Origin: a virus
Taxonomy: Duplodnaviria > Heunggongvirae > Uroviricota > Caudoviricetes
Virus record (IMG/VR): IMGVR_UViG_3300029582_000367
Location: 28,950 to 92,949 of that record
Strand: one strand, 5' to 3'
Length of the DNA: 64,000 nt
Shown piece by piece: positions 7,812 to 61,211 of this stretch (the first letter of the stretch is position 1; each line of letters begins with the position of its first letter). A model generated the notes under the pieces. The model was not told the origin of the DNA. It saw only the letters and a program-made list of their open reading frames with translations, and ran no database searches. The position numbers and the translations under genes were made by a program.

Positions 7812-7848
7812 GAAGGCCACCCATGGCGGGTGTCCTTCTTGTTGTTAA
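7812..7848. terminator. bidirectional terminator hairpin (AACAAGAAGGCCACCC..GGGTGTCCTTCTTGTT)
   Basis: 14-bp perfect stem. Confidence 0.6.
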
Positions 7849-14302: not shown

Positions 14303-15357
14303 TTAGAGCGCCAGCCGCATTTGGACATCACCTACACGACGCCGTGCAAGCTCGGCATACTCTTCGTTCAGCTCAATACCGATGAACTCGCGTCCATAGC
14401 GATGAGCCACAATGCCCGTCGTCCCGCTTCCTGCGAAGGGGTCGAGGACAATATCACCAGCCTTTGTTCCTGCAAGGATACAAGGCTCAATGAGCTTCTC
14501 AGGGAAAGTCGCAAAGTGCGCCTCCCGCGTTCCCTGTGTTGCAACGCTCCAGACATCACGGCGGTTTCTTTTACCGGTCCTGTTCTCGACGTTCCCGTGT
14601 GTCTCACGTTCCGCCACAGCGCTGTTATCAAAACTGCGATTGTTGGTATAGGCGCCGCCCCCACGGAATGACTTGGCATTGCCTCTGCGCCGTCTTGTAT
14701 TGGGGCGAAGTGTACCTTCGCTTCCCGCTACCTCAGCGTTATTGTAGCCAACGGCATCTTCCATAACGGCCTCATAGTCGTAGTAGTAAGTCCGTGACTT
14801 ACTGAGGAGGAATATATACTCGTGGCTGCGGGTAGGGCGGTCTTTCACGCTTTCCGGCAGTGCATTGAGTTTCTGCCACAGGATATCGCTTCTCAGATAC
14901 CAACCATCGGCTCTCAGCGCGAAGGCGAGCATCCAAGGGATACCCAGCAAGTCCTTAGGCTTGGCGTCCTCACTGGTAACGGTCTTTTTCAGGCGCCCCA
15001 TGACCGACCCCGTGTTGGTACTCTGCTTCGTGTTTTTCCCGCCGGCGTCCGAATGACGCCCGTCCGCATTGCGTCCTTTGCCGCTTCCTGCGTAGCTGTC
15101 GGCGATATTGACCCACAGCGTGCCATCCGGCTTCAGGACTCGCTTCACTTCGTGGAAGACCTCCACCAGCTTCGCAATGAACTCCTCCGGCGTATCTTCC
15201 AGCCCGATTTGCCCATCCACTCCGTAGTCACGGAGCTGGAAATAGGGAGGAGAGGTGACACAGCACTGTACGCTCTCGCTATCCAGTTGTCTCAGGACTT
15301 CAAGGGCATCGCCGCTGTATATCACAAATGACACCTCCAGTTTGCGTTCTTCACGTT
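14303..15357 (-). CDS. DNA methyltransferase (beta-class N6-adenine/N4-cytosine; motif IV SPPY precedes motif I DPFAGSGTTG)
   Basis: TSPPY and VLDPFAGSGTTGIVA motifs; start placed at GTG ~15357 with GGAGG RBS (ORF-track start 15415 reads through array C repeat). Confidence 0.8.
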
Positions 15358-15378
15358 CGCTCAGGCCACGCAACATAA

Positions 15379-15617
15379 GGTATACAACCCTGTTATTTTG
15401 GGGTTTTATACACACCGTGCGAGGGGGTGTAAGGACAACTCTATATGGTATACATCCCTGTTATTTCAGGGTATTATACGCCCCTTGCAATCCGCAGGGC
15501 GTATGCCAGTGTAAGTATAAAACCCTGTTATTTCGGGGGGCTTATACACCTGTGCCGCCTATCAGCCACTCGTCCCGTAGGAGTATACAACCCTGCTATT
15601 TCGGGGTCTTATACACC
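15379..15617 (-). CRISPR. CRISPR-like mini-array C: 4 repeats (15379-15416, 15447-15482, 15515-15550, 15583-15617), 3 unique spacers (30, 32, 32 nt)
   Basis: same 36-nt palindromic repeat family; spacers unique. Confidence 0.55.
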
Positions 15618-17223: not shown

Positions 17224-18708
17224 TCAGGCAGGGATAAAAACCATGCCAACATTCTTTGCGAGAAGCGCACACCTCTTTGTTAAAACCCTTGCTCCTTTCG
17301 TAGAATTGTAATAATTTGGTGTACCATTATTCCGTCCTGATGACCCCTTAAATACTCCAACAATCCCATCAAAATCCATCATCGCCCCCGGCATGATACG
17401 AGCCATGTCCTTGTACTGGGGTGAGTGAGGCCTTACGGTGAGCTGCGATACCGCAGCGTCGCCGTAAGCCTCGCGGAACTCCTCAAGACTATCGGACTTT
17501 TGCTCAATGGCCTTATGCCGGTTTGCTGCAACGACCTTGCCGTCCAGAAGGTACTTCCGGTCAACCATTTGGCGGATACAAGCCTGCCGGTCGTGCCGGC
17601 GGAGCTGCTTCAACTCAAAGGGTTCGACAGGTGCAGAGACCTTCGTATCTGCATCCAAAATGGAACAGGCGATACAGTAGGCATCCGTATAGTGTTCCTT
17701 CGGCACATTCTTGGCAATGCGGAAGCCCTTGGTGGACTTACCATCCGTGGCATAGACATCGTAGGGAGTCTCTCTTCCGAGGTATTCCATGAGGTGAGGG
17801 ATAATCTGGTTCAGCACGCTCAGGGCGTGGTACTTTTTATTCATACCGCCCTTGCGTGTGACCAGTTTTTCCGCCCACGCCTTGTCCTTGTGGACGAGGT
17901 CGTGATGCCTCGCACAGAGCCCACACCGGTTTGCCAGCGTCTCGCTCCCACCCTTATGGCGTGGGACGACATGGTGATAATGGTCAATGGGCTTCTTGCA
18001 GAACAGGCAATGTCCGTCCTGCTGTGCGTACACCGCATCCTTCACGGAGCCCAGCCCGTACAACGGTCCCTGCTGGTATTCCCATCGACGGATATTGGGA
18101 TTATCCATCGCCATGAAAGCAAAGCGGTTTAGCTCCACTACCACCTTTGTGATGGGTAGAACCTTTGCAATCTTCGCAATCAAGTTGATGTGGGTCTGCA
18201 GCAGATGGTTCGCCGTAGGTGTCAACCAACCCACAGGGCGGCTGCGGTTATTGAACCGCGCCTCCTTATTGCGGATGTAATGACACACAACGGGCTTCTC
18301 GTAGCCGGGGAGCAATCTCTCGATGGTGTTGCTTTCCACGGTAGTCCCAGCAGCTATCGCACGACGCTGGCGCTTCCTGCGCCGGTCCTGTGTGCGATGG
18401 TTTCTCCGAAACGCAGCACGCTTCTTCATCAAGAGAGGTACTTCCTTGTTGCGGGTCTCCAAATGTGCGGAGAACACGCAGGAGCCGTCCTCCTTGACGA
18501 CAGCAACGCCAATATTCGTCCTGCCGGGGTCAATGCCAAAAATCAGGTCTTGGGTGATGTCAGGGGTATCATAGTTCAACTGGATGGTAAACGGGGTGGT
18601 ACAAACAACTCGTGCTTTCTTTTCCTTCAGGAGAAGGCGCACATAGCAATATCGAGTTGTCGGCATCAAAGGTTTACCGTCTTTGTTTTGCACATAGACC
18701 ATTGTCAT
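17224..18708 (-). CDS. iscB: IscB OMEGA RNA-guided nuclease (PLMP domain + RuvC-I/II/III + HNH)
   Basis: N-terminal KPLMPT (PLMP), GIDPGRTNIGVAV (RuvC-I), HNH CLFCKKPIDHYHHVVPRHKGGSETLANRCGLCARHHDLVH, RuvC-III EHYTDAYCIA; 494 aa; GGAGATGAG RBS. Confidence 0.85.
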   Translation of the reverse strand: MTMVYVQNKDGKPLMPTTRYCYVRLLLKEKKARVVCTTPFTIQLNYDTPDITQDLIFGIDPGRTNIGVAVVKEDGSCVFSAHLETRNKEVPLLMKKRAAFRRNHRTQDRRRKRQRRAIAAGTTVESNTIERLLPGYEKPVVCHYIRNKEARFNNRSRPVGWLTPTANHLLQTHINLIAKIAKVLPITKVVVELNRFAFMAMDNPNIRRWEYQQGPLYGLGSVKDAVYAQQDGHCLFCKKPIDHYHHVVPRHKGGSETLANRCGLCARHHDLVHKDKAWAEKLVTRKGGMNKKYHALSVLNQIIPHLMEYLGRETPYDVYATDGKSTKGFRIAKNVPKEHYTDAYCIACSILDADTKVSAPVEPFELKQLRRHDRQACIRQMVDRKYLLDGKVVAANRHKAIEQKSDSLEEFREAYGDAAVSQLTVRPHSPQYKDMARIMPGAMMDFDGIVGVFKGSSGRNNGTPNYYNSTKGARVLTKRCALLAKNVGMVFIPA

Positions 18709-19025: not shown

Positions 19026-19062
19026 AGTTCTATACTACCACAGTTTGATATTTTGTCAAGTC
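19026..19062 (-). promoter_or_regulatory. promoter-only copy of the shared module (TTGACAAAATATCAAACTGTGGTAGTATAGAAc) driving omega-RNA/iscB
   Basis: 33/34 identity to promoter portion of modules M1-M6, lacks the leader/attenuator part. Confidence 0.6.
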
Positions 19063-36432: not shown

Positions 36433-37797
36433 TTAGAATTTCAGTTGGTCTTCAGTTATTTTTGCGATTTGCGGCAGCTTGCGAGCTTCTTCGGTACGAA
36501 GCTGGAACATATCCAACTCATAATTACCGAGCCGCACGCGGTCAAGACCATCGGCATCCTTGAAGATGTCAAAGAGGCTTTTGACTCGCAGCTCATCTTG
36601 CTTATCCAACCAATGTTTCTCGATGAACTCATAGCCTTCCTTATCGGGACGGCAATGATACTCCATCAGGAACAGAGTGATGGGGTCAGTATCAGGATAC
36701 GCTTCCTGCAGCATCTTCGCGCTCTCGGCGCCGTGGGTGTTGTCCTCTGAATCACTGCATCTACCTGTGTCATGGTACAGTGCGGCATCAATCAAAATCT
36801 CCTTGTCTTCCAAGTCCAGACCCTTCATATATGCCAACAGCATACACATGAACAGGACACGGCCAGCATGAGCCTTTCCGTGTAGTTTGCTTGCCATTTG
36901 GAAAGGAACGGCATCATAGTCGGCAGTCCTCTGATAGAGCCAGAAGTCATCTATCGCGCCGTCATCCACGGCCTCATTGAGCCAGTCGATACCATAGAGG
37001 GGAAAGTCTTCAACCTCCTTGATGTCATCAGGAGATACGATAATTTCAGCCTCCACACCTTCGAAATACTCAATGACAGAGGCTTTTTCGACTGTAGCCC
37101 GAAATACCTTCGCATTGTCAGACGGGAAGCGTGTGGCGAAGAACACGGCCACGGCAGGGTCCAGCGTCCAAGAGAATGCCTCCTCCAGACTTGCGCTTTC
37201 ATCGCCGGCGCCACGGTAGACCGTCAGGGTGTCGGGATACTTCTTGAGTCCCTCCTCCGTTGCCTGAATCTGTTCCGGTGTTTTCATGCTCTTGAGCTTC
37301 AGTATGCCGTCCCGTCCAAGTGCAGAGCATCCGTAATCGGAAAAAGGGTAGACATCATAGAACAGTTTGTAAGCGCCATCAAAACCCTCATCAACGAGCT
37401 TCTTCAGATACTCTATCCGCATCCGGTCGTTGAGTGCCGTGATGATGAAGCTACAGTTGCCTGAAGCAATTTTCTCCTTCAGTTGCTCAACAGCCCCTCG
37501 GATTTCAGGTGTTTTATCCTCGCCGTCGGCTGCCATTGTGAGACTGTGGCAGGGGAATATGACCTTATCCTTATCCCAGTAATAGAACGGGGTGAAGCCG
37601 CAGCCATAGTAGAGGTTTTCAATGATGTCGTCGGTCAGATGAAACTTCTTCCGCAGTTCATCGGCTGTATAGAGCGCCATATAGCCGTTCCGACTGGCAA
37701 TCGCCTTTGCTTTCTCTGATGTGACAGACGCAGCAGGGAGGAGGTTGCTGAACGATTCGACATTGCGGGATTTCATCACCACATCAGCGATGTTCAA
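36433..37797 (-). CDS. HD-domain phosphohydrolase-like protein with large N-terminal unknown domain
   Basis: LYHDTGRCSDSEDNTHGAESA (HD motif) in C-terminal part; start uncertain (TTG). Confidence 0.55.
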   Translation of the reverse strand: MNIADVVMKSRNVESFSNLLPAASVTSEKAKAIASRNGYMALYTADELRKKFHLTDDIIENLYYGCGFTPFYYWDKDKVIFPCHSLTMAADGEDKTPEIRGAVEQLKEKIASGNCSFIITALNDRMRIEYLKKLVDEGFDGAYKLFYDVYPFSDYGCSALGRDGILKLKSMKTPEQIQATEEGLKKYPDTLTVYRGAGDESASLEEAFSWTLDPAVAVFFATRFPSDNAKVFRATVEKASVIEYFEGVEAEIIVSPDDIKEVEDFPLYGIDWLNEAVDDGAIDDFWLYQRTADYDAVPFQMASKLHGKAHAGRVLFMCMLLAYMKGLDLEDKEILIDAALYHDTGRCSDSEDNTHGAESAKMLQEAYPDTDPITLFLMEYHCRPDKEGYEFIEKHWLDKQDELRVKSLFDIFKDADGLDRVRLGNYELDMFQLRTEEARKLPQIAKITEDQLKF

Positions 37798-37993
37798 ACT
37801 TTTCAACCTCCTTCAACAATTTCTCTATCACTTCGGCAGCATCAGCTTCAAGGCTGTTAATGTTGCAGGCACCGTCCACATCTCGGTACTTGCACCGCTT
37901 ATCGCCGCAGCCGAAGTTGTCTTCAGCGTCCGTGCCATAGCAACGGAGTCTCTTGACAACTCTCAACGCATCACTTTTCAGCTTGGCTGTCAT
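37784..37993 (-). CDS. small Cys-rich protein
   Basis: GAAAGGAGAAAGC RBS. Confidence 0.45.
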   Translation of the reverse strand: MTAKLKSDALRVVKRLRCYGTDAEDNFGCGDKRCKYRDVDGACNINSLEADAAEVIEKLLKEVEKFEHR

Positions 37994-38028
37994 TGTGCTT
38001 TCTCCTTTCTTGTCTAAATAGACTTTAA

Positions 38029-39075
38029 TCAGGCTCTAACATATCGTGCCTTCTTGGACATTCCGATACGTTTAATGCTCCCTTCCTTCACCATGCGTCC
38101 AAGCACAGCCTCCACGGTGGACGGGCTTACATCAGGATGAATGGCGCATATCTCCGCTTTGGAAATTGGCATCAGGCTGCCAAGTACCGTAGCTTCGATT
38201 CGCGTCATCTTCGTGATTTTCTTCCCATTGACGACTGCAAACCGCTTATCCAACTCCTTATAGCACTGATACAGTATGGACAAGAAGTTTTGAATAAATG
38301 GCGCATAGTCGTTGTTGTTCTCCATCCAGCCCTTCGAGGATTGCTCCAGTGCGTCGTAATAATACGCCTTGTGATGGTTGATTTGTTCCTCGAAAGAAAT
38401 GTACTTTCCTACATCGAAGCCGTTTTTGTAGAGCAGCAGAAGTGAGAGCAATCTCGACATTCTGCCGTTACCGTCGCGGAAAGGATGGATACACAGGAAG
38501 TCCAAAATAACGCAGGGAATAAGAAGAAGCAGGTTGATATTGGAGTTGGAACAGGCATCCAAATAGGCCAGTTCCAGTTGCTCCATAGTAGCCGGTGTCT
38601 CTGCCGCAGGTGTGGGACGAAACCTCACACGCCGCGTGCCATCCGCCGCGACTTCCAGAATCACATTGTCATCTGTTTTGTACTGCCCACCGTTCTCGTC
38701 GCCTGCGACTGCCATCATGGTTTCATGGAGCCGCAGAATGTCAGGAACGCCGAAAGACAGGTACTCATATCCTGAATGCACAGCGTTGAGTGCATCTCTG
38801 TATCCGGCAATTTCCGCCTCATCATGGTTCAGAGGCGCACTGCTGTGGTTTACGATTTCCGCAATGCGCTTGTCGCTGGTCACAATGCCCTCAATGGCGT
38901 TGGAGCTCTTTACTGACTGAACTCGCGCAATGGATTCCAGTTCAGTGAAGACTTTTCCAAACTCCTGCTTACGGAAGCCGGCTTCAGTACGAAGAGAGTA
39001 GATTTTGCTCGTGATGTTCACAAGGCTTGCAGGAAGCAGCCCGTTATCGAGGAAAGAATAATCAAACTTTCTCAT
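38029..39075 (-). CDS. fic: Fic/Doc family protein (HPFRDGNGRMSR) with C-terminal winged-helix
   Basis: canonical Fic motif HPFx[DE]GNGR. Confidence 0.85.
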   Translation of the reverse strand: MRKFDYSFLDNGLLPASLVNITSKIYSLRTEAGFRKQEFGKVFTELESIARVQSVKSSNAIEGIVTSDKRIAEIVNHSSAPLNHDEAEIAGYRDALNAVHSGYEYLSFGVPDILRLHETMMAVAGDENGGQYKTDDNVILEVAADGTRRVRFRPTPAAETPATMEQLELAYLDACSNSNINLLLLIPCVILDFLCIHPFRDGNGRMSRLLSLLLLYKNGFDVGKYISFEEQINHHKAYYYDALEQSSKGWMENNNDYAPFIQNFLSILYQCYKELDKRFAVVNGKKITKMTRIEATVLGSLMPISKAEICAIHPDVSPSTVEAVLGRMVKEGSIKRIGMSKKARYVRA

Positions 39076-39150
39076 AACACCAGCTCCTTTCTGCACATTA
39101 TTATACATCTTTATATGCAGAAAATCAACTCCTTCCTGCAGCAAATGGGC

Positions 39151-42191: not shown

Positions 42192-44069
42192 CTACGCCAC
42201 CTTGCTGATGACCTGCGCCGCATTGGAACGAATCTCGTTCTGCTCGACGGGGTCATTCGTGCATTTGGCGATGAGGCACGTGTTAATGTAATCTTCCAAA
42301 TGAGCCATGTATCTGTCGTCACACTGCACGCAGCAGACGAGAGACTCCAGCTCGCAAATAGTGCAGGAACCTTCCGTGATTTCCTTGTCGGCGCAGTAGC
42401 TCCGAATCTGCTCGAACACGTCGTACAGAGCGTTCAGCGTCTTGTCGTCACGGCTCCAGCCGGTGTTGTACTTGATGCGCTCCAGCATAGCCTGCTTTTC
42501 GATTTCAGTGCTGTCGAAAATCATCCGGCAACGCCGAATAACAGACTGGTCGATGGGGCGGCAGGAAGCATAGCCGACGTTATCCGTGAATACCACAACG
42601 GCATCCTTCTGACGATACGTAAAACCGCCGTCCACCAGCGGAATCATAGCACCCGGCAGGTCGTACTGGTTCAGTGCGACCATAACGCCGGAGTCCTTGA
42701 TACGGCTGATTTCCTGAATCTCGCAGATGTAACCGCGAGAAACGGCTTTCACGAAAGCGGACTCGACCACCTTCACAGGGGAAGTGCAGCCGGCGCGGGC
42801 AACCAACAGCTCAGAATACTTTGCGAAGCATTCCTCAGATGTGATGCCCGTGCCATCCTCGCCCGTCATGGTCGTCCACGCGGATTCGGGGTCGAAGGAA
42901 ATCTCATCGAACGTGGGAAGTTCTCCACGCGCCGCATCCACGGGATTGCAGGGGACGAACTCAGAAATCAGGTCCTTCGCCAGCATATCGGTATGGCAGG
43001 TCAGCTCCAGCCGAGGAGTGTGCAGGATGCACGCCAGAACCTTCGTGCCGGTAGACTTACCGTAACCGGTAATGCCGCGCCACAGGAAGTTGCGGAAGGG
43101 TACGCGCATATTGGACGTAGCGACGATTTTGTCGGCCATCTCGATAACCTCAGGCTGAACCTTGAAGTCATCATCGAAGGTGGGAATCAGCAGTTCCTCG
43201 TCGGGCGTCCACGGGTGTGCGTCAGCCCACGCTGCGTATCTGAGCTTGGCAGCCTTCACGGTCATGCCCTTGGTAGAGCTTGAGGTGCTGTTGGCGGCCA
43301 TTGTGCCACCGATGATGGTAGGTGTGCCGACAATGATGGTGCCGTTGAAAGCGCCGTTGTTGACCTTCTGCCGCGTCAACGTATCCATGTTCCCGTTCTG
43401 GACGTTCAGCGGGACTTTGCCCGTCTCACAGCCATAGTAGAACATATCACTGAAGATATACAGATAGTTGAAGGCGGTAGATGCTTCCACCATGTGAGCG
43501 CCCCAATCAGCGGGGTACTTGGCGCACAGGGCGAGAATCTCGTCACGGACGGTCTTGAGTTCCGAGTTGTCATCCACGACAGCCAACTCCGGCGCCTCGT
43601 AGTAGAGGGACAGGACTTGGGGTGTCATTGCCAGCATAGCGCCGCTGAGGTCGATGTCGTCAGACTCAGAACCGATAGACGGAGTACCCGCCCACTGGCC
43701 GGAAGGCATCGTCACGGCGGCACCCAGTTTACCGACAGAAGGCGCATTGGTCTGGAACACCGTTTTATAGGTGAACAGCAACGTCTTCACGGTCGTGCCG
43801 GTAGAGTTGTCGCGGAACTCAGCGCTCCACAGATTGTCAGAGACCTGCAGCAGAGCATAGTCCTCGACAAAGCCGGGAATACCCAGATATGCCAGAAATG
43901 CTCTGGTTGCATAGGCGTGCAGCGTAGATTGCCCCTTCATAGACGGTCTCTGCGGCGCATTCCACTTGGAGAACGTCGTCGTGCTGCGGTTAGGCATTTG
44001 GTTCAGCCCGAAGGGGAGGGTACTGATGTCGAACCCTTTCTTACTTCTGAAGAGTACACAATTTGCCAT
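42192..44069 (-). CDS. AAA_5/MoxR-like P-loop ATPase (GITGYGKST) with ~380-aa N-terminal unknown domain; likely partner of VWA protein
   Basis: Walker A GITGYGKSTG, Walker B-like ICEIQEISR; first gene after module M3. Confidence 0.65.
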   Translation of the reverse strand: MANCVLFRSKKGFDISTLPFGLNQMPNRSTTTFSKWNAPQRPSMKGQSTLHAYATRAFLAYLGIPGFVEDYALLQVSDNLWSAEFRDNSTGTTVKTLLFTYKTVFQTNAPSVGKLGAAVTMPSGQWAGTPSIGSESDDIDLSGAMLAMTPQVLSLYYEAPELAVVDDNSELKTVRDEILALCAKYPADWGAHMVEASTAFNYLYIFSDMFYYGCETGKVPLNVQNGNMDTLTRQKVNNGAFNGTIIVGTPTIIGGTMAANSTSSSTKGMTVKAAKLRYAAWADAHPWTPDEELLIPTFDDDFKVQPEVIEMADKIVATSNMRVPFRNFLWRGITGYGKSTGTKVLACILHTPRLELTCHTDMLAKDLISEFVPCNPVDAARGELPTFDEISFDPESAWTTMTGEDGTGITSEECFAKYSELLVARAGCTSPVKVVESAFVKAVSRGYICEIQEISRIKDSGVMVALNQYDLPGAMIPLVDGGFTYRQKDAVVVFTDNVGYASCRPIDQSVIRRCRMIFDSTEIEKQAMLERIKYNTGWSRDDKTLNALYDVFEQIRSYCADKEITEGSCTICELESLVCCVQCDDRYMAHLEDYINTCLIAKCTNDPVEQNEIRSNAAQVISKVA

Positions 44070-44087
44070 GGTCTTTTTCTCCTTTCT

Positions 44088-44274
44088 CCCAGCCTGTAAT
44101 AAGGACTTACGGGAATCCAAAAAATGTTATATATAGAAAAAGACAGTCACTTCCCAGAAAAGGGAAGTAACTGTCTTGATTCTTTGTGGTGACTTGAAAA
44201 CGGAGATAATCTCCTTTATAAAAATAGCTTCGTAATTATAATTCTATACTACCACAGTTTGATATTTTGTCAAT
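44088..44274 (-). promoter_or_regulatory. promoter-leader module M3 (terminator hairpin with compensatory changes)
   Basis: hairpin AAGACAGTCACTTCCC-AGAAAA-GGGAAGTAACTGTCTT differs from M1 at paired positions. Confidence 0.7.
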
Positions 44275-47540: not shown

Positions 47541-48320
47541 TTAGGCTTCGGCGCCGAACACCTTTTTGCAGATGGAATGAATAGCCACGAACTGTTCCTG
47601 AAGCTGTGCCGGCACGAGGGAGACGGAGAGACCGGCATCGCGCCATACACTTTGGCCTGCGAATGCTTTGTCCCACAGTTCTCCACGTTCGTGCTGGGCC
47701 TCCAAGAGCCTCTCATAGCGTTCTTCTTCCGTCTTTGCAGCGTCAATGTACTGCCGTGTGTACTCGTTGAAGTCTGAAATATTCATCTCCGTCTGGTCGG
47801 TGTACTCAAAGCGGGGATATTGGGAGTCGATGAAATGGGCCGCTTCTTTGGTGAGATTGAACCCCTTCATGTAGGTACTGCCATTATCGCCCCTGAGGAA
47901 CAGCAGTGACGCCTGCCAATCACGGGAGACGATTTCGTAGATTTCAGTGATAACGTCGAGCAGATTTTTCTTCTGCTCTTCTGTCAATGAAATCTTCCGC
48001 TTCTGCGCCTCCTTCTGCAGAATCTGTTCCGCAGAGCTTTTGGCGCTATCCGTCATCGTAAAAGACGGCGTCCAGTCGTACATCAGAACACACTTATGGA
48101 CGACGTTTGCGGCGATTGAAGCAAAAACAGGTCTGAGCTCCTCAACATCCTCTACAGACTTCTTGGCGAAGATGATGGCGAGCTGGCAGAAATCGAGCGA
48201 GTTGTAGACAGCGTCCACGAAGGACTTCCGCTGCACTTCCCGAATCTCACTGCCGAGCTTGACCAACTCCCCGATGTCGGTAGAGTTGATGCGCCAAGCG
48301 TCAAAGATTTTTGTGCTCAT
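47541..48320 (-). CDS. hypothetical protein
   Basis: GGAAGGTGGG RBS. Confidence 0.5.
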   Translation of the reverse strand: MSTKIFDAWRINSTDIGELVKLGSEIREVQRKSFVDAVYNSLDFCQLAIIFAKKSVEDVEELRPVFASIAANVVHKCVLMYDWTPSFTMTDSAKSSAEQILQKEAQKRKISLTEEQKKNLLDVITEIYEIVSRDWQASLLFLRGDNGSTYMKGFNLTKEAAHFIDSQYPRFEYTDQTEMNISDFNEYTRQYIDAAKTEEERYERLLEAQHERGELWDKAFAGQSVWRDAGLSVSLVPAQLQEQFVAIHSICKKVFGAEA

Positions 48321-48685
48321 TTCAGGCACCCACCTTCCTTGAGAATGTCCATGACCTTCTCCAACACGGTCAACGGAGCGTTGAAGCCGAAGTCGCCAAC
48401 GGCTCTGCGAAGAGCTATGAGCAATTCCGCCTGATGGTGATAGTCCTTGGCAGCCTGTTCCGTCTGATACAGCCGGTAATCTGTACTCCAGTACATGGAG
48501 TTCTGCTGGAAGTAGGGATTTCTGTTCGCATCTTCGGAAGGAGCCTTGTAGTATCGACAGTCTCTATTGTCTGTCAGCCACTTGGTTCCGACCTTGACTG
48601 TGACCTCTTCCACCACTTTTCCGCGCTTCCTTTCGGCATTGCTGCCAATAACCGTTACGCGGTAAAGTCTCATTTCAGCGGCCAT
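48317..48685 (-). CDS. hypothetical protein
   Basis: AAAGGAG RBS. Confidence 0.5.
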   Translation of the reverse strand: MAAEMRLYRVTVIGSNAERKRGKVVEEVTVKVGTKWLTDNRDCRYYKAPSEDANRNPYFQQNSMYWSTDYRLYQTEQAAKDYHHQAELLIALRRAVGDFGFNAPLTVLEKVMDILKEGGCLK

Positions 48686-49219: not shown

Positions 49220-49402
49220 TCAGCAGCCATCAGCAGGGTAGGGCGGGATGGTAACGGACAGGTTGTAGATGTGGTTGCCGCAGCGAACACACTCGGCATC
49301 CTTGTCCCACAACCCACGTTCCTTCATGCCGCGCACGCTGCCCGTACAGTGAATGGACGGGTGCGTGTCTCGCTCATGTTTGGTGAGCTTCTTGTACTTC
49401 AT
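49220..49402 (-). CDS. small zinc-ribbon protein; first gene after module M4
   Basis: AAAGGAGAAACACC RBS. Confidence 0.5.
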   Translation of the reverse strand: MKYKKLTKHERDTHPSIHCTGSVRGMKERGLWDKDAECVRCGNHIYNLSVTIPPYPADGC

Positions 49403-49436
49403 GGTGTTTCTCCTTTCTTTGTTGTCGAAAAATGCA

Positions 49437-49580
49437 ATAAATATATAAAAAAAGACAGCTACCCCAAGATTGGGATAACTGTCTGAATTTATGTGGTGAC
49501 TTGAAAACGGAGATAATCTCCTTTATAAAAATAGCTTCGTAATTATAATTCTATACTACCACAGTTTGATATTTTGTCAA
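49437..49580 (-). promoter_or_regulatory. promoter-leader module M4 (shorter gene-proximal part)
   Basis: same promoter/hairpin family. Confidence 0.7.
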
Positions 49581-49628: not shown

Positions 49629-49764
49629 TTTTAGTCGGGATTTCTGAATTTTCAAATTGCAATTTTAGTCGGGAAATCAGAGTTTTAAGAACTAAACTTT
49701 AGTCGGGAAAAACCGAATAAAAATTTGAGATTTTAGTCGGGAGAACAGGAACAAACATAGTCCA
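49629..49764. repeat. iteron-like array: 4 x TTTTAGTCGGGA at exact 34-bp periodicity in AT-rich spacer
   Basis: repeat starts 49629, 49663, 49697, 49731. Confidence 0.6.
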
Positions 49765-49832: not shown

Positions 49833-49860
49833 AAAGAAAAGCCCCCGAAGGAGCTTTTCT
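49833..49860. terminator. terminator (AAGCCCCCGAAGGAGCTT hairpin with A/T runs)
   Basis: hairpin + runs. Confidence 0.5.
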
Positions 49861-49895
49861 TAGTGGAAAAATCAGTGCTTTGCTGTGAAAAGTTT

Positions 49896-54899: not shown

Positions 54900-55463
54900 T
54901 CAGACACGGTCGTGTACGCAATCACCATTCCCATCCATCACAGAATCGTGCTGGAGGAAGGTGTCGTGGTACAGTGCCTTGCCAAACGCCTTGCAGACGG
55001 GGCATTCCCAGCTCACCTCCGTACCATCGTTGTAGTCGATTTCACGGTCGCCCTGATATTCGACCTCGGCGCCACACACGGGGCAGACGTCCTCCTCATC
55101 GCCGTTGGGGTGCAGGAACGGGATGCGCTTACCCTGAGGGTCAGTGAAGGGGACGACTATGCGCTGAATAACGGCCAACAGAACGTCGATGTCGGCGTTT
55201 GCCATCATCAGCGCGATGCGTCCGACCTCCAGCTTGAAGTCCTCGGAAAAGATGTTCCCTTGGATAGTCGCAGCGATAGCCGCAGGATGCGCCATGGCCG
55301 CGACGGTATCACGTCCCAGCGAAATGAGGGCGTTGAGTGCCATAATGAACACGGTATGACCGGATTCGGTATAGGCCTTATCCAACTCCTCATAGGCTGT
55401 GGCATCGTGATTCTTACGACGCTGTGCGTCTAAACGGGCAATTTCATTAGGATAGTCAGTCAT
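54900..55463 (-). CDS. hypothetical protein with C-terminal zinc ribbon; first gene after module M5
   Basis: GGGAGAAAGGAGAAATTC RBS (module-derived). Confidence 0.5.
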   Translation of the reverse strand: MTDYPNEIARLDAQRRKNHDATAYEELDKAYTESGHTVFIMALNALISLGRDTVAAMAHPAAIAATIQGNIFSEDFKLEVGRIALMMANADIDVLLAVIQRIVVPFTDPQGKRIPFLHPNGDEEDVCPVCGAEVEYQGDREIDYNDGTEVSWECPVCKAFGKALYHDTFLQHDSVMDGNGDCVHDRV

Positions 55464-55479
55464 GAATTTCTCCTTTCTC

Positions 55480-55664
55480 CCTGCCTATGATAAGGACTTA
55501 TGGGAACACAAATGTATGAAAATATATAAAAAAGACAGCTATCCCCGAAATGGGATAACTGTCTGAATTTACGTATGGTGACTTGGAAAACGGAGATAAT
55601 CTCCTTTATAAAAATAGCTTCGTAATTATAATTCTATACTACCACAGTTTGATATTTTGTCAAT
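55480..55664 (-). promoter_or_regulatory. promoter-leader module M5
   Basis: same family. Confidence 0.7.
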
Positions 55665-55931: not shown

Positions 55932-56642
55932 TCACAGACTTCCTTTCGGTTTGATTTTCGGCGCATACATATCTTTGCCCTGCTTTTCGTAGAAAAGCGT
56001 CTGCGTCTTGTTCGTCCCATCCGGTCTGATATTCTGATACGAAGGATGCTTTGGAAAAGCTGCCATTAGTTTTCTGAACCGCGCCACCGCCTCTGAAGGC
56101 TTGCATTTTGCGGCCACATAGTAGTTCAACGGACTGGCCTGCCCGAATGTCATAACTTCGGAATGGGGACGCTTCATCATCTCGATGACCTCGTCCGTGA
56201 AAGCCCCACGGATTGAATCCGGTGTCTTGGTTCCATCCTCGTTGGCATAGGCTTCCAGATTCATCTTATCGAATCGAATGAGAGGGTCGATGATATGCTT
56301 GTCATCTACGACGATGAAGCTGTGGTGGGTAGGGACGGCATCGCCTACGAAGAGCCAGCCGGCATACGGAACGGCGTTCTTCACGCCTGCGGCAACCAGA
56401 GCGTCCAGAATGCGCTGGGTGTTCTGATAGCAGTAGCCGACATCGACCTCCGTGGCATCGAAGGCCTGTCGAATGGTGTCGGTCTCTACACCTGAGGGAA
56501 ATGGAAGTGTGTTGCCGTAGCTAAACACTTCCATTGTCCCCGTCATCGGATACATCTGTGAAGGTATCTTAATAGGCTTTTCGCTGAATGACGGGTTGAT
56601 GTAGATAGCATGAGAGCGTAATACCTCAAGGCTACTTGTCAT
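55932..56642 (-). CDS. hypothetical protein
   Basis: GAGGAGGA RBS. Confidence 0.5.
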   Translation of the reverse strand: MTSSLEVLRSHAIYINPSFSEKPIKIPSQMYPMTGTMEVFSYGNTLPFPSGVETDTIRQAFDATEVDVGYCYQNTQRILDALVAAGVKNAVPYAGWLFVGDAVPTHHSFIVVDDKHIIDPLIRFDKMNLEAYANEDGTKTPDSIRGAFTDEVIEMMKRPHSEVMTFGQASPLNYYVAAKCKPSEAVARFRKLMAAFPKHPSYQNIRPDGTNKTQTLFYEKQGKDMYAPKIKPKGSL

Positions 56643-57312
56643 TTCTATCTACGTCCTCCTCAGTCTCAGTAGCACTATTAAGTGAATTACAGAGCTTCTT
56701 CTCATAGTCGGAAAGCAGAAGTTCTCCAACATTATTGCTTTTGATGCCTACGAGGTCACAGATTTCCTGTTTGCTCCAGAAAGCATTTTCCCTGCATTTA
56801 TAGGTGTCGCCATGTGCCTTCTTGAATATTCTATCCGTTGAAGAGCCGGAGTTGTCATAAATATGGCAGATGTCGCATAGGTCAACAAAGGCCTGAACCC
56901 TTGCCAAAGACTTTTCGTACCGAGACCGAATCTTTTCTTCAGGTACGTCGTGGCCTCCAGATTGAACACGTTCCCAAACACGAAGTACGTTTACGGATGC
57001 GTCTTTCGTAAGAACGAAAAAGCCTTTTATGAAATACCCATGCTCTTTTGCATATTTTAGAAATTCCAGTTTTTTATTCGTGGACAAAACTGTCTCGAAG
57101 GTAAAATCTTCGCCCCATTCTACACACTGTAAGCGCATTGCATCAGCCTTCTGTGCCGCTTCCAAATCGCTGCATCCAGTTTCTTTTTTGATGTCGTCTG
57201 CGTTGATATACGGGGGTAGTATATCTACTCTACTTGTAAGTGAGCTTTTACCTGACCCGTTAGGCCCAGCGAAAACGATAATGCAAGGTTTCCGCTGTTT
57301 CTCATTTGACAT
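56632..57312 (-). CDS. P-loop kinase of zeta-toxin/AAA_33-like fold (FAGPNGSGKSS)
   Basis: Walker A immediately after N-terminus, size and layout like zeta/PezT toxins. Confidence 0.5.
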   Translation of the reverse strand: MSNEKQRKPCIIVFAGPNGSGKSSLTSRVDILPPYINADDIKKETGCSDLEAAQKADAMRLQCVEWGEDFTFETVLSTNKKLEFLKYAKEHGYFIKGFFVLTKDASVNVLRVWERVQSGGHDVPEEKIRSRYEKSLARVQAFVDLCDICHIYDNSGSSTDRIFKKAHGDTYKCRENAFWSKQEICDLVGIKSNNVGELLLSDYEKKLCNSLNSATETEEDVDRNDK

Positions 57313-57517
57313 ACTCGATTCTCCCATCCGGATACAGTAAATAGGCACACTTTTTCTCTGCATCATAGCGAGCAACAGGAATACCTTTCATTTTTGCCCG
57401 TTGATAGGCTTCAAAGGCTACCGACGAAATCCGACGGTCCATTTCCGCATCCTCTTCGTCACAGTGAGGGTCTTCATATAGGCAAGTTTTGGATACGCCC
57501 TTTACGAATTCTTCCAT
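57302..57517 (-). CDS. small protein overlapping start of zeta-like gene by 11 nt (candidate epsilon-type antitoxin)
   Basis: AAAGGAGGATACAACT RBS; 71 aa; position. Confidence 0.4.
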   Translation of the reverse strand: MEEFVKGVSKTCLYEDPHCDEEDAEMDRRISSVAFEAYQRAKMKGIPVARYDAEKKCAYLLYPDGRIEYVK

Positions 57518-57650
57518 AGTTGTATCCTCCTTTCAATTTTCAACTCTATTATAGCCCATTTGTACGCTCTCTGTCAAACAGACTATGTATAGAAAGAGAG
57601 GACTGCTGCAAACAACAGCCCCCTCCAAGGTTATAAAATCTCCTTTCTGC

Positions 57651-59456: not shown

Positions 59457-60620
59457 TTACGCCTGCCGGCTTACGATGCTCCGCTCTTTCTCAGTAAGCA
59501 GCGCATCATCATCGCTCTCACACTGGCCGGCGTTCCAGCTCACACTGGTGGACTCAGTATGCAGGACATTTTCGATGAGGGTGACTGCATTGTCAGCGAA
59601 GTTCTCCAAATCTGCATTGGAGAACGCGAACGGCACCAGCTTCTCAATGATGACATCGAAGGAACCATCATCATAGGTGAATGTGCCGGCACCGCTGCCG
59701 AAGTTCGCTTTCAGTGCCGTACGTACCTCTATCATATCGGCGGGGCGGGGGAAAGCGGCTCTCAGCCAAAAACGCATCTTGTCCTGTCCGGAAGCCTTGT
59801 CGTAGTAGACATAGCACTGGCACTTATCGCCGCAGATATCCCGCACGCGGATGTCGGCATTTTCGTCAGAGGACGTGTTTTTGGAGGTGGAATCGGTGCT
59901 TTTCAGCTCCACGAAGGTGGCATCGCTCTCCATGTGCTCACTCAGCCACTCATCAATGTTATCGACCTCGGCAGAGGGAACCTCGACGATGTAGGCAGGA
60001 CCCACATTGGGGTAGACCTTAAAGCGCATGGCATCCACATTCCGCCCACCAGCAGGAATCTGTACGGACGCCGGCTTACCGTCGATGGTGCCGAACTGTG
60101 CCTCGAACATACTGATATAACTGCTGACGTGCTGGAACTGATAGCCGATTTCGGCAGTGTAGTTGGAGGTGAAGCAGTAGAGTGCGTGGCCGATACCCTG
60201 ACGGGAAATCCACCACGAAATCTTCTTGTTCGCACCGTTACGCACCGGCGTAAAGTTGTAGAGTCCGTAGACAAAGGGGATGCCGACACGGACAGTACCA
60301 CTCTGCGCCTGACCCTTGACGGGCAGCTCGTCCCACGCACCGTTCGCGTTCACGAAACGCCCCACGAGGACGTCCGCGCTGCACGTTGCGATGAGATTAG
60401 CTTCGCAGGATTCGATGCCGACCAGCTTCGCATACACAGCCTCATCAGCAGCGTTCACCTCATGGAGACCGACAACAGCCGGTACGAATGTGCCATCGCC
60501 GTTGGTAGCTGCCATCATTACAGCAAAACCATCCTTAGTGATTTCGCCGTTGACGATGACTTCCTCACGGATAGCCTCCATGTTTTTGCCAGTGCGCTCG
60601 AAGATAACTTTGGTTTTCAC
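59457..60620 (-). CDS. hypothetical protein (~388 aa); first gene after module M6 (GTG start with module RBS)
   Basis: GGGAGAAAGGAGAAACAA-GTG. Confidence 0.5.
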   Translation of the reverse strand: MKTKVIFERTGKNMEAIREEVIVNGEITKDGFAVMMAATNGDGTFVPAVVGLHEVNAADEAVYAKLVGIESCEANLIATCSADVLVGRFVNANGAWDELPVKGQAQSGTVRVGIPFVYGLYNFTPVRNGANKKISWWISRQGIGHALYCFTSNYTAEIGYQFQHVSSYISMFEAQFGTIDGKPASVQIPAGGRNVDAMRFKVYPNVGPAYIVEVPSAEVDNIDEWLSEHMESDATFVELKSTDSTSKNTSSDENADIRVRDICGDKCQCYVYYDKASGQDKMRFWLRAAFPRPADMIEVRTALKANFGSGAGTFTYDDGSFDVIIEKLVPFAFSNADLENFADNAVTLIENVLHTESTSVSWNAGQCESDDDALLTEKERSIVSRQA

Positions 60621-60635
60621 TTGTTTCTCCTTTCT

Positions 60636-60818
60636 CCCAGCCTTGAAGGACTTACGGGAACACAAAAATGTATGTATATATATAAAAAAAGACAGCCATC
60701 CCAAGATTGGGATAACTGTCTTGATTCTTTATGGTGACTTGAAAACGGAGATAATCTCCTTTATAAAAATAGCTTCGTAATTATAATTCTATACTACCAC
60801 AGTTTGATATTTTGTCAA
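60636..60818 (-). promoter_or_regulatory. promoter-leader module M6
   Basis: same family. Confidence 0.7.
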
Positions 60819-60823
60819 CGTTT

Positions 60824-60848
60824 TCAGATAAAGAAAAAGCTCCCCGAA
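60824..60848. terminator. terminator AAAAAGCTCCCCGAAGGGAGCTTTTTT
   Basis: perfect hairpin with A/T runs. Confidence 0.65.
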
Positions 60849-60866
60849 GGGAGCTTTTTTCACAGT

Positions 60867-61211
60867 TCAAGAACAAGAAAAAATATCACAGAGAACAGAA
60901 CGCACCTTGGCGAGAACCTCATCGGGCAGATGGCCGACAACATCGTACTTGTTCGCCATGATGTTGAAATAGCTTACATACTCACACAGGACGGTTCCGC
61001 TACGAGGAGGACACGTCTTCTCATCGAGTATAACATGGTATGGGCCGTGCTCAGTTTCGTAGGACAACGGACACACCCAGACGAAATCTGTTACTCCGTG
61101 CAGCGTATCGTTGCTTACAACGAGCAGGGTACTTGTGACACCAAACTTCATCGCGCCGTCGGTGGGGTCGAATTTGGCGATGATGATATCGCCTCTTTTC
61201 GGTCTACTCAT
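60867..61211 (-). CDS. MazF/PemK-like endoribonuclease toxin
   Basis: RGDIIIAKFDPTDGAMKFGVTSTLLVVSND...VCPLSYETEHGPYHVIL matches MazF/PemK core pattern. Confidence 0.7.
   Translation of the reverse strand: MSRPKRGDIIIAKFDPTDGAMKFGVTSTLLVVSNDTLHGVTDFVWVCPLSYETEHGPYHVILDEKTCPPRSGTVLCEYVSYFNIMANKYDVVGHLPDEVLAKVRSVLCDIFSCS

Follow-up and report, generated by a model that had tools for sequence, protein, structure and literature searches.

A repeated promoter-leader-terminator module heading many operons of a human-gut element, with possible control by local antitermination

The locus raises the question of why a strong promoter should be followed, before the first gene that it serves, by what has the anatomy of a strong terminator, and why this arrangement should head one operon after another. 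The locus belongs to an uncultured element of ~190 kb that is common in human-gut metagenomes and whose genes mostly have no known function; the window analysed here is the whole 64,000-nt stretch of DNA from IMG/VR record IMGVR_UViG_3300029582_000367. The exact 28-nt promoter TTGACAAAATATCAAACTGTGGTAGTAT occurs six times in the window, always on the minus strand (336-363, 19032-19059, 44246-44273, 49553-49580, 55636-55663 and 60791-60818), and the number of matches expected by chance from shuffles is 0.00. A search of the window with a covariance model of the leader (filters off) scored the five full copies, and no others, at 111-128 bits; the runner-up reached 25 bits (Table 1). A full unit spans roughly 200 bp. 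Alignment of the five full copies showed that they are invariant from the -35 hexamer to ~+57 except for a 1-nt insertion in one copy. The first-pass annotation had reported five full minus-strand copies, and all of them were recovered with spans slightly longer than its ranges. Its order of parts is also the one seen here (TTGACA, 16 nt and TGgTAGTAT; the hairpin GGAGAUUAUCUCC; a long hairpin with a U-run; the RBS). Some of its details need adjustment: the hairpin is followed by a U-run as described, which is 5-7 nt long in the window copies and not always 7; the terminator stem given as 14-15 bp is counted at 13-16 pairs by the terminator scan; and the copy at 49400-49580 lacks the ~50-nt segment described as conserved, and of the RBS block it lacks the GGGAG half. 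A terminator of the preceding operon, described for every copy, lies within ~45 nt upstream of four of them; for the copy ending at 49580 it lies ~250 nt upstream, with a 4x repeat between. The promoter-only site placed near 19026-19062 is a true promoter-only copy, and that placed at 30577-30610 is a diverged relative. The true promoter-only copy stands in front of an omega-RNA region and the IscB gene (17224-18708), an arrangement that is the same in three further loci (L024, L033 and L047).

Table 1. Positions of the module copies, of the parts of the focal copy and of associated features in the window; module coordinates run from the -35 hexamer through the start codon.
Feature	Position	Strand	Details
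Focal module	60618-60818	minus	to the GTG start of gene 59457-60620; covariance model 128 bits
Promoter, sigma-70/sigma-A type	60791-60818	minus	TTGACA 60813-60818; 16-nt spacer; extended -10 TGgTAGTAT, -10 hexamer 60791-60796
Second perfect -10-like TATAAT	60780-60785	minus	5 nt past the -10; ~-1 to +5
Conserved single-stranded 5' leader AUAAUUACGAAGCUAUUUUUAUAAA	60760-60784	minus	putative +1 to +25; predicted unpaired
P1, 5-bp hairpin GGAGA-UUA-UCUCC	60747-60759	minus	then G+U4 60742-60746, then conserved CAAGUCACC
T2, predicted intrinsic terminator	60684-60720	minus	hairpin 60691-60720, GACAGUUAUCCCA-AUCU-UGGGAUGGCUGUC; U7 60684-60690
Post-terminator 5' UTR	60618-60683	minus	AUAUAU, UACAU, predicted small hairpin CCC...GGG, RBS, GTG 60618-60620
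Terminator of preceding operon	60834-60859	minus	intrinsic; after MazF/PemK gene 60867-61211
Module copy	55461-55663	minus	T2 55534-55563, U-run 55528-55533, ATG 55461-55463; 119 bits; heads operon with first gene 54900-55463
Module copy	49400-49580	minus	T2 49454-49483, U-run 49447-49453, ATG 49400-49402; 123 bits; short post-terminator UTR; heads small-protein operon
Module copy	44067-44273	minus	longer T2 44142-44175, 14-16 bp; 111 bits; heads AAA / DUF3232 / VWA operon
Module copy	160-363	minus	T2 236-265, U-run 229-235, ATG 160-162; 127 bits; downstream gene runs off the window
Promoter-only copy	19032-19059	minus	identical 28 nt, identity to ~+3; without leader or terminator
Diverged promoter relative	30583-30610	minus	TTGACA-16-TAATAT then AGAAT; without leader or terminator
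Cys-rich protein, 60 aa	49220-49402		in operon headed by the 49400-49580 copy
ProQ_C-like protein, 122 aa	48317-48685		same operon as the 60-aa Cys-rich protein

The promoter matches the sigma-70/sigma-A consensus. Comparison of 55 distinct upstream contexts showed that the -35 TTGACA and the TGG-TAGTAT are unchanged, with at least 17 variants of the spacer between them and with flanking bases that vary too. A second TATAAT follows 5 nt after the -10 in 54 of the 55 contexts, and the 5 nt between the two vary (AGAAT, AGTAG, AATAG, ATAAG and others). Next to this TATAAT, only TGG-TAGTAT-A upstream and TACGAAG downstream are fixed in the distinct contexts compared. By its sequence and position this TATAAT is a candidate sigma-dependent pause element. 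It had been missed by the first-pass annotation.

In sets of 60 and 63 distinct copies, the column identity of the leader is at least 97% over +1 to +12 and mostly 85% or more up to +24. The segment upstream of T2 is ~62 nt long and AT-rich, and its single hairpin, the 5-bp P1, has compensatory changes at three of its five pairs in the metagenome set, with the stem variants GGCGC/GCGCC, GGUGC/GCACC and GGAGC/GCUCC. As the stem sequence of P1 changes across lineages, P1 is a structural element rather than a mimic of the Shine-Dalgarno (SD) sequence. The pairing between the GGAGAU hairpin and the RBS that the first-pass annotation had raised was discarded for the same difference between lineages, as was any use of GGAG/CUCC in P1 as SD and anti-SD, whether by pairing with the RBS or as a stabilising SD. 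The P1 loops are 3-4 nt long and vary freely (UUA, GUA, UUUA, CUUA, AAAA, AUUA, AGAA and AUAA), so that there is no obvious sequence-specific loop contact.

The focal T2 hairpin is predicted at -19.9 kcal/mol with a pair probability of 1.0, which would place the 3' end of the transcript at ~+100. Over the distinct copies, T2 has 12-15 predicted pairs (mode 13) and a mean of -19 kcal/mol, and is followed by U4-8. Compensatory changes are found at nine of 12 pairs and ~98.7% of the cells are paired (independent sets of 62 and 69 distinct copies); the covariation score was reached by no shuffle, and slid controls were 44-64% paired. These comparisons support structural selection on the hairpin, and the frequent G-U pairs indicate that the hairpin is specific to the sense strand. 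T2 has the hallmarks of an intrinsic terminator, namely a stable GC-containing hairpin directly before a U-run on the sense strand, and is predicted to terminate transcription. Its pair probability is 1.0 in all five window copies with no competing structure, and the sole alternative in the nascent leader is a weak 5-bp pairing. Within the leader, conservation falls on +1 to +24, the base of P1, GUUUU, AGUCAC and the five lowest pairs of T2, and variation on the linker and the upper part of the T2 stem. The paralogue before the replication operon has the same architecture with a wholly different T2 stem (GAGACCAUCAUC/GAUGAUGGUCUC). Two candidate antiterminator pairings, AGUCAC-GUGACU in one paralogue (44142-44175) and UUACG-CGUAA in another (55527-55629), were each confined to that single paralogue and were rejected as not conserved. 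Beyond T2, the focal RBS is GGGAGAAAGGAGAAA, with AAGGAGAAA at 60624-60632.

The module is present about 14 times per ~190-kb IMG/VR contig. On contig IMGVR_UViG_3300045988_183936, two DNA patterns located 13 full modules and one promoter-only copy, all on one strand. At least 120 stretches carrying the module were found in human-gut metagenomes, and ~28 different first genes stand behind it across lineages, the primase/replication operon being also preceded by a module. Each operon is closed by a terminator of its own, after which the next one begins with a promoter of its own. A given gene can stand behind one leader variant in one strain and behind another elsewhere; the leader type of the VKTKVIFE gene in the window, for example, differs from that in locus L036. 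Such differences suggest recombination or gene conversion between modules. To that extent these exchanges agree with the earlier proposal that the module is mobile as one piece; transposon-like ends were not observed. Searches of the whole window against Rfam at the gathering score returned a tRNA elsewhere and left the module unmatched, and searches of the module with E up to 10 returned terminator look-alikes below the threshold. There was no match to the module in phage and plasmid records (blastn) or, for its sequences, in a literature search, and the exact and degenerate promoter patterns had none in 185,579 GTDB species genomes. No phage hallmark genes were detected among 20 window proteins scanned against PHROGs. 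The element carries plasmid-type genes (ParB, a RepL/HTH_36-like protein, a serine recombinase and a tip pilin). The strong GGAGG-type RBS, the extended -10 and the sortase-type pilin suggest a Gram-positive-like host.

A unit of promoter and promoter-proximal intrinsic terminator does head many operons, as had been proposed, and the reading that needs the fewest assumptions is joint control of them by an antitermination factor. We tentatively favour, with a likelihood a little short of even, a regulon that is gated by factor-dependent antitermination acting locally at each leader. Transcription from the strong host-type sigma-A/sigma-70 promoter would by default end ~100 nt on, at T2; since T2 lies before the RBS, the operon would be expressed only through read-through of T2. 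The lack of a competing T2 fold, together with the separate promoter, leader and end terminator of each operon, argues for a trans-acting local factor rather than a processive change of RNA polymerase. The factor would probably be a protein encoded by the element. It may read the 5' box (AUAAUUACGAAG...), P1 with its G-U4 tail, and/or CAAGUCACC...AAGACAG, and would stop the nearly invariant base of T2 from closing. The TATAAT at ~+1 and P1-U4 could act as pause sites, at which the factor would have time to bind ahead of the synthesis of the 3' arm of T2. The outcome would be a single switch for the ~14 operons, whose content ranges from replication genes to many accessory genes that are toxin-like or orphan. 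One control point for ~14 operons of a large element is a testable proposal, and the leader, a defined RNA motif with covariation that is not in Rfam, can mark operon starts and be used as a bait for the binding factor. A more specific version holds that the leader (the 5' box, a 5-bp hairpin built on GG/CC with a U-tail, and a long-stem terminator with an invariant base) is a new RNA class read by an RNA-binding antiterminator of a widespread, phage-plasmid-like element, which switches the ~14 operons at once, with a sigma-dependent pause as timer. This version is possible but on balance rather unlikely; if true, it would be a Gram-positive, multi-copy and non-processive counterpart of the lambda early switch, and a sigma-dependent pause, if involved, would be an instance from beyond the lambdoid phages of Proteobacteria.

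The search for the factor used NusG and RfaH of E. coli and lambda Q as phmmer queries, in approximate form, and gave no match in 3,496 ORFs from the window and the loci, which cover about half of the element. The Q-family Pfam model had no match among ~80 proteins scanned, and no ANTAR or PRD protein was found among the proteins scanned. The sole RNA-binding lead is a sub-threshold Pfam match of the 122-aa ProQ_C-like protein. Its homologues are all at least 70% identical, the AF2 model has a pLDDT of 65, and neither a fold match nor a PDB sequence match was obtained. With a sub-threshold Pfam match, a poor model and no fold match, the protein was set aside as the factor and is kept as a lead.

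Control of the lambda Q type is the closest rival in layout. A DNA-binding factor would load on RNA polymerase paused at the TATAAT, after which T2 and the later terminators would be ignored. The module shares with lambda pR'-qut-tR' a strong, constitutive-looking promoter, an early -10-like element (here a perfect TATAAT, kept behind 5 variable nt), a promoter-proximal terminator ~100 nt downstream and a short default RNA; a preprint describes Q proteins as loading at a Q-binding element that adjoins a sigma-dependent pause element (doi 10.1101/2022.03.25.485794). However, P1 covaries at the RNA level, which a DNA-loaded factor would not need, and the module is present in ~14 units compared with one in lambda and in a Gram-positive-like host. 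The lambda Q-binding site lies between the -35 and the -10, where the module has its many spacer variants. An own promoter, T2 and end terminator for each operon would be pointless for a terminator-resistant polymerase, and a processive Q-like system thus fits less well; with ~14 separate cassettes, the architecture speaks against read-through into one long operon. The absence of a lambda-Q homologue, from an approximate query over about half of the element, is a weak test. The earlier comparison with lambda pR'-tR' gains from the TATAAT but is weakened by the separate end terminators and the variable spacer, and Q-type control is unlikely. A further possibility, which we also consider unlikely, is that there is no dedicated factor, T2 being a constitutive, partly leaky attenuator and insulator that tones down a very strong promoter, and the leader a shared 5' UTR homogenised by gene conversion. 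Module variants are indeed swapped between genes in different strains, and the primase operon behind a module implies some read-through whenever the element replicates. However, gene conversion alone does not account for variable spacers, linkers, loops and upper stems next to a fixed 5' box, P1 base and T2 base, and these fixed parts hold across lineages and in the divergent paralogue. In addition, a stem of 12-15 bp at -19 kcal/mol with U5-8 is predicted to be an efficient terminator.

The consensus promoter could instead make the ~100-nt leader RNA alone, with the operon transcribed from a -10-only promoter past the U-run (TATATT/TATATA, starting near UACAU) that would use a sigma factor or activator encoded by the element. 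T4-type late promoters have a -10 element and nothing else. In 72 of 77 distinct UTRs the U-run is followed by TATAT(T/A), with UACAU 7-12 nt past the U-run in 56, so that most copies could have a second, factor-dependent promoter. However, a lineage with GCGUUUUUAUCUUGAAAGGAG after T2 has neither motif in the ~15-20 nt between the U-run and the RBS, which leaves no room for another promoter. In addition, neither a -35 nor a TG motif is conserved there, and no promoter is called at this place by the consensus scan. The scheme has a low probability. A similarly low probability is given to the terminated ~100-nt RNA being the product itself, a multicopy trans-acting small RNA, which may act alongside its role as a leader. 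The 5' 24 nt are the most conserved and predicted unpaired, hairpins and a terminator follow, and ~14 strong promoters per element would make such an RNA. On the other hand, a search of the window outside the modules for sites complementary to the 5' box gave none of 10 nt or more, and every copy lies directly before an RBS in the sense of the operon, which free-standing small-RNA genes do not need. A riboswitch, T-box or other ligand-sensing leader with alternative pairing, as the first-pass annotation had suggested, agrees with the module in general layout alone (promoter, leader, terminator, gene). It is highly improbable given the T2 probability of 1.0, the lack of an antiterminator fold and of any Rfam family at threshold, and a ~62-nt segment before T2 that offers one 5-bp hairpin with a variable loop. 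Equally, the DNA that is invariant between -15 and +25 could serve as an operator for a repressor.

The favoured local reading has its nearest parallels in BglG/LicT-RAT and ANTAR (EutV) control, in which, as in the module, a short shared leader motif lies just before the intrinsic terminator of several operons, or overlaps it, and control is local, in keeping with cassettes that have separate promoters and end terminators. The BglG/LicT and ANTAR proteins bind RNA and antiterminate passively, without processivity, each leader having one target; EutV serves several leaders of the Enterococcus eut locus. However, the module has no RAT-like 29-nt hairpin. ANTAR targets (EutV/AmiR/NasR) are two tandem hairpins with hexanucleotide loops that have A at position 1 and G at position 4, the second hairpin overlapping the terminator, whereas P1, the one hairpin of the module before T2, has a loop of 3-4 nt, and no further hairpin overlaps T2. 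The module also has ~14 copies on a mobile element compared with one to four in a metabolic locus. The lambda N/nut system resembles the module in having, close to the start of early transcripts and upstream of terminators, a conserved single-stranded box with a small hairpin after it, and in its early-to-delayed-early logic. However, lambda N is processive and reads the boxB loop, and there are two nut sites per lambda genome, whereas the loop of P1 is variable, the 5' box AUAAUUACGAAG does not look like boxA and the sites number ~14. HK022 put is a two-hairpin structure and EAR a large pseudoknotted one, in contrast to the one 5-bp hairpin before T2, and, although Rfam has models for such RNAs, the module gave no Rfam match to them with E up to 10.

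Among Gram-positive systems, LoaP (a NusG paralogue) and the pLS20-type conAn use a leader RNA that lets the polymerase pass intrinsic terminators (PMC8191782, PMC10325885). The conAn2 RNA region is 260-600 nt long, with a GC-rich box and SL1, and lies downstream of the conAn1 gene, once per conjugation operon (PMC8191782). The module differs in being repeated ~14 times, with ~62 AT-rich nt before T2 and no gene upstream within the unit. Terminators with long 15-bp stems behave unlike average 9-bp ones, and long stems resist conAn-type antitermination (PMC10325885), which argues against a conAn mechanism for a T2 of 12-15 bp. In regulons of LoaP and other specialised NusG paralogues, a NusG-like (NGN-KOW) protein is encoded together with the target operons; the NusG and RfaH searches described above, over about half of the element, gave no match. 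The host-takeover module of the Bacillus phage SPO1 is likewise a row of many short operons, each with a strong consensus early promoter, a strong RBS and its own terminator; its units are not known to have a conserved leader with a terminator between the promoter and the first gene. Xp10 p7 is a site-independent phage antiterminator that binds RNA polymerase. P23-45 gp39 is another such protein (PMC3351154). One small protein of this type could open all promoter-proximal terminators simultaneously and so provide a temporal switch, but it would need no conserved leader and would pass the operon-end terminators, whereas the leader of the module is strongly conserved.

As a compact cassette of a strong promoter and a tight stop, the module could be reused in synthetic biology. 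The repeated module breaks metagenome assemblies. Contigs of a lineage with 67% identity break inside the module, before the promoter is reached.

A cassette of promoter, leader RNA, terminator and ribosome-binding site (RBS) recurs on the minus strand of the window, and the anatomy of the focal copy is listed in the table. The exact 28-nt promoter occurs 6 times in the window vs. 0.00 expected by chance. Alignment of the five full copies showed that the region from the -35 hexamer to about +57, counted from the inferred transcription start site, is invariant. A covariance model of the leader, run with filters off, found exactly these five copies (111-128 bits; next best match, 25 bits). The repeated module described in the first-pass annotation is confirmed, with minor corrections to coordinates and details. 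The copy at 19032-19059 is a promoter alone, leading into the IscB omega-RNA region, and at 30583-30610 there is no more than a diverged relative of the promoter. The promoter-leader-terminator cassette is real, highly non-random and widespread.

Features of the focal module, its parallels in the window and related loci
Feature	Position	Strand	Remarks
Focal -35, TTGACA	60813-60818	minus	followed by 16-nt spacer
Focal extended -10, TGgTAGTAT	60791-60796 (-10 hexamer)	minus	followed by AGAAT
Focal second perfect TATAAT	60780-60785	minus	after AGAAT
Focal leader, AU-rich 25-nt stretch AUAAUUACGAAGCUAUUUUUAUAAA		minus	followed by P1
Focal P1 (leader hairpin), GGAGA-UUA-UCUCC, 5 bp	60747-60759	minus	followed by GUUUUCAAGUCACC
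Focal linker, variable, ~12 nt		minus	between GUUUUCAAGUCACC and T2
Focal T2 (terminator), long hairpin	60691-60720	minus	followed by U7 at 60684-60690
Focal post-T2 UTR, AUAUAU...UACAU, small predicted hairpin, GGGAGAAAGGAGAAA		minus	ends at GTG start, 60618-60620
UACAU after T2 in the window	60655-60675, 55500-55520, 200-225		
TTTATA-16-TATAAT	44215-44242, 49522-49549, 55605-55632, 60760-60787, 305-332	plus	
Toxin-type and nucleic-acid-targeting genes in the window	7845-8546, 36433-39144, 56632-57375, 60867-61211		
Distant AAA-VWA homologues	L083 5740-6000, L085 5800-6000		promoter, one or two hairpin-plus-U-run elements, RBS

The promoter and leader were compared in sets of 60-69 distinct leaders each, drawn from a lineage with 85% identical AAA proteins, from paralogues on the same contigs and from distant metagenome lineages. 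Upstream contexts were taken from matches to the covariance model, which begins at +1, so that no promoter was imposed on the search. Across 55 distinct contexts, TTGACA is invariant and the spacer is always 16 nt long, with at least 17 sequences whose sole fixed bases are the final TGG. TAGTAT is present in 54 of the 55, and the five bases after it vary (AGAAT, AGAAG, AGAAC, AGTAG, AATAG, ATAAG, GATAG, ATTAG and AGTGG). The varied spacer and the varied bases after TAGTAT indicate change sufficient to randomise unconstrained positions. The second -10-like TATAAT, which covers roughly -1 to +5 of the inferred transcript, is also kept in 54 of 55 contexts and is under selection. Along the RNA, conservation extends over +1 to +24, the two basal G-C pairs of P1, GUUUU, AGUCAC, the lower five pairs of T2 (GACAG/CUGUC) and the U-run; the P1 loop, the linker and the upper stem and loop of T2 are variable. 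It is very unlikely that the module is a meaningless repeat.

Strong comparative support indicates that both leader hairpins are real RNA structures. T2 was predicted by RNAalifold from sequence alone, with double changes at 6 of 12 pairs and broken pairs almost absent (3 gap cells at one pair). In model-based alignments of two independent collections (IMG/VR and the window, 62 distinct rows; metagenomes, 69), both sides change at 9 of the 12 pairs and 98.6-98.8% of the cells are paired, compared with 42-64% when the partner was slid by 1-3 columns; no shuffle reached the covariation score. Two mid-stem positions are mostly U-G, indicating that the hairpin functions on the sense strand alone, i.e. 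in the transcript. In a paralogue ahead of the replication operon (primase and neighbours) the T2 stem, GAGACCAUCAUC/GAUGAUGGUCUC, is unrelated; it occupies the same position and is followed by U5. P1 is GGAGA/UCUCC in the window and GGAGC/GCUCC, GGCGC/GCGCC or GGUGC/GCACC elsewhere, with compensatory changes at 3 of 5 pairs. Directly after P1 there is invariably a G or U with a short U-run behind it, a combination akin to a weak terminator or pause hairpin. The GGCGC/GCGCC and GGUGC/GCACC variants and the compensatory changes rule out P1 as a Shine-Dalgarno lookalike or RBS-pairing partner. Pairing of this GGAGAU hairpin with the RBS, put forward for testing earlier, is thus not borne out.

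The T2 stems comprise 12-15 pairs (mode 13; mean -19 kcal/mol) and are followed by U4-8. In the modelled ensemble the T2 pair probability is 1.0 for all five window copies, and as far as the T2 loop the nascent transcript can form no structure other than P1 and one weak 5-bp helix. T2 therefore has the predicted look of an efficient, unconditional terminator. The part preceding T2 is ~62 nt long, with a single small hairpin whose loop is variable, leaving space neither for a ligand pocket nor for an antiterminator helix. Together with the absence of a match to the module in Rfam, this makes a riboswitch or classical attenuator very unlikely, and the ligand-sensing or attenuator leader suggested in the first-pass annotation is not upheld; to a riboswitch in particular we assign almost no probability.

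After the T2 U-run, most copies have AUAUAU, and 56 of 77 distinct UTRs, from several classes that otherwise differ, have UACAU 7-12 nt past the U-run. Firmicute MazF/EndoA toxins cleave at UACAU, and a PemK/MazF gene (60867-61211) lies directly upstream of the focal module; the post-T2 UACAU may be a processing site dividing the leader from the mRNA. TATAT(T/A) after the U-run could be a -10-only promoter for a sigma factor or activator. Against such a second promoter, T2 of one lineage runs straight into GCGUUUUUAUCUUGAAAGGAG, where both the AUAUAU-type and the UACAU motif are absent and the RBS is only ~15-20 nt away, and in the window a consensus scan called no promoter in the interval from T2 to the genes; we regard it as quite improbable. 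Expression of the operons through T2 read-through is the simplest family-wide reading. At other window promoters, such as that at 57548-57577 (12/12 consensus), the leader is short and plain and contains no terminator, indicating that the leader terminator is a property of the module and not general to promoters of the element.

As T2 has no built-in switch, read-through requires either leakiness or a trans-acting factor. The 5' box (the conserved single-stranded leader start), the base and tail of P1, AGUCAC and the base of T2 are strongly conserved across lineages and in the paralogue with the T2 stem fully replaced, which argues for specific recognition. What the data show is the anatomy of the cassette and the selection on it; the start site, termination, pausing and the factor are inferred. 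The best model, held tentatively at somewhat less than even probability, is a leader-specific RNA-binding antiterminator. The factor would bind the nascent leader and hold the 5' arm of T2 before the 3' arm is made, and the TATAAT and P1-U4 elements may be pause sites providing time for binding. It would act locally, leader by leader, as the cassette layout suggests: each operon begins with its own promoter and T2, and operons end in terminators. The terminator of the previous operon, reported earlier to precede each copy, is indeed within ~45 nt upstream of four window modules, but the fifth has one only within 250 nt.

A processive system of the lambda Q type finds support in the invariant TATAAT. 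However, the promoter spacer is variable, P1 covaries at the RNA level, and processive terminator resistance in the style of Q or N would render the end terminators and repeated promoters of the cassette layout purposeless; this alternative is unlikely. On pLS20, stems of ~15 bp withstand conAn-type processive antitermination, and average B. subtilis terminators have stems of 9 +/- 2 bp (PMC10325885), so the 12-15-bp T2 would be a poor substrate for a conAn-type mechanism. The long stem is no obstacle for a factor that grips the 5' arm ahead of 3' arm synthesis. A leaky attenuator working without any factor, its uniformity maintained by gene conversion, would fit the swapping of leader variants between genes across strains and the presence of the module on the replication operon, but leaves the position-specific conservation unexplained and is likewise improbable. 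There is only a slender chance that the leader serves as a trans-acting multicopy small RNA, which may coexist with its leader role. Promoter-proximal termination relieved by antitermination, as in the favoured antiterminator model, is itself a known mode of control, put into effect here by presumed steps; unusual in the cassette are its copy number, the second -10-like element and the setting.

A search of 3,496 ORFs from the window and the loci, which cover about half of the element, gave no relative of NusG, RfaH or lambda Q. The operon behind the 49400-49580 module has genes for a 60-aa Cys-rich protein and for one of 122 aa (48317-48685, minus strand). The latter has a sub-threshold match to PF24203, 'Phage ProQ C-terminal-like' (24.2 bits vs. 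a cut-off of 27), and some homologues of 76-90% identity carry a precomputed ProQ C-terminal-like hit; related contigs have two tandem versions of it, of 150 and 122 aa. Its structure model is poor (pLDDT 65), and fold comparison of the model gave no match. ProQ/FinO proteins bind terminator-like hairpins, and the 122-aa protein is a candidate RNA-binding protein, a lead and not evidence. Four exact TCCCGACTAAA repeats with a 34-bp period (49630-49742, minus strand) precede the same operon, between the terminator of the previous operon (49834-49861) and the module promoter. This array accompanies no other module; it is iteron-like and probably a binding site for Rep, ParB or a regulator protein.

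Similar layouts occur in more distant AAA-VWA operons. In one, at 46% protein identity and from a metagenome contig that is otherwise unrelated, the order is a promoter of its own, TACGAA close to the 5' end, a 7-bp hairpin with U5, a long hairpin with U5-AUAUA and an RBS; in another (36% identity) the promoter is followed by just one leader hairpin with a U-run. The leader covariance model detected neither, and the leaders of the distant homologues L083 and L085 have no sequence similarity to the module. A third homologue, L086, has a Rep_3 gene upstream and lacks such a leader. These operons sit in other mobile elements, with neighbours including PcfJ and DUF4314. The resemblance is only architectural, yet it hints at promoter-proximal terminators as a common feature of such elements.

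The G+C content of the window is 51%, and nearly all of its transcription is from the minus strand. Its recognisable genes encode two TnpB and one IscB, an N6/N4 DNA methylase, PBECR4, Fic, HD, zeta-toxin and MazF/PemK proteins, the AAA/DUF3232/VWA trio, an SPFH protein, a non-specific endonuclease and two XRE-type regulators, and there is one tRNA. Most remaining proteins had no match in the Pfam scan, and the PHROGs scan of 20 window proteins matched solely families of unknown function. The PBECR4 nuclease, HD, Fic, zeta-toxin and MazF genes cluster in module-driven or adjoining operons, and the toxin and methylase content resembles a host-takeover or anti-defence set. The methylase gene (14303-15415) is an orphan. 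The two 372-aa TnpB genes (OrfB_IS605 / Cas12f-like TNB; 2884-4002 and 9105-10223, minus strand) have near-identical domain matches. The 19032-19059 promoter, cut at about +3, lies upstream of the IscB (RRXRR) gene at 17224-18708 and drives the presumed omega-RNA; its junction recurs in the related contigs L024, L033 and L047.

The exact promoter occurs in many copies on IMG/VR contigs of 47-192 kb, on one strand within any contig. IMGVR_UViG_3300045988_183936 (190,756 bp) has at least 13 full modules plus the omega-RNA promoter, a minimum based on contig ranges of loci from two DNA patterns. Beyond the window, related contigs encode ParB, a RepL/HTH_36-like protein, primase, a RecD2-type helicase, a serine recombinase, YqaJ nuclease, a sortase-type tip pilin and a tRNA array; no phage structural genes were seen in the about half of the element read. 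The exact and degenerate promoter patterns had no match in 185,579 GTDB species genomes, nor the module in phage or plasmid records or the searchable literature. A degenerate pattern matched at least 120 stretches in metagenome contigs, many with 'human gut metagenome' in their names. Many of these contigs start or stop inside the module (L155, L161, L164, L166, L182-L184, L192, L201, L202, L211 and others), and all three recovered contigs of a 67%-identity lineage start inside it or in the UTR immediately after; the module repeat fragments assemblies of this element.

Owing to the palindromic AATTATAATT, each module also has a promoter-like TTTATA-16-TATAAT on its other strand. This sequence is weaker in the 85%-identity lineage and could yield a short antisense transcript that stops at the bidirectional terminator upstream. 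A related strong promoter without a leader terminator, TTGACA-N17-TAGTAT, lies on the strand opposite the modules in the related loci L089 (1312-2360, minus strand), L026 and L052. It drives the RepL/HTH_36-like protein adjoining the ParB gene and, elsewhere, the tRNA array. Beside the RepL/HTH_36-like promoter, a divergent module drives the primase operon, and the region probably serves replication and maintenance of the element.
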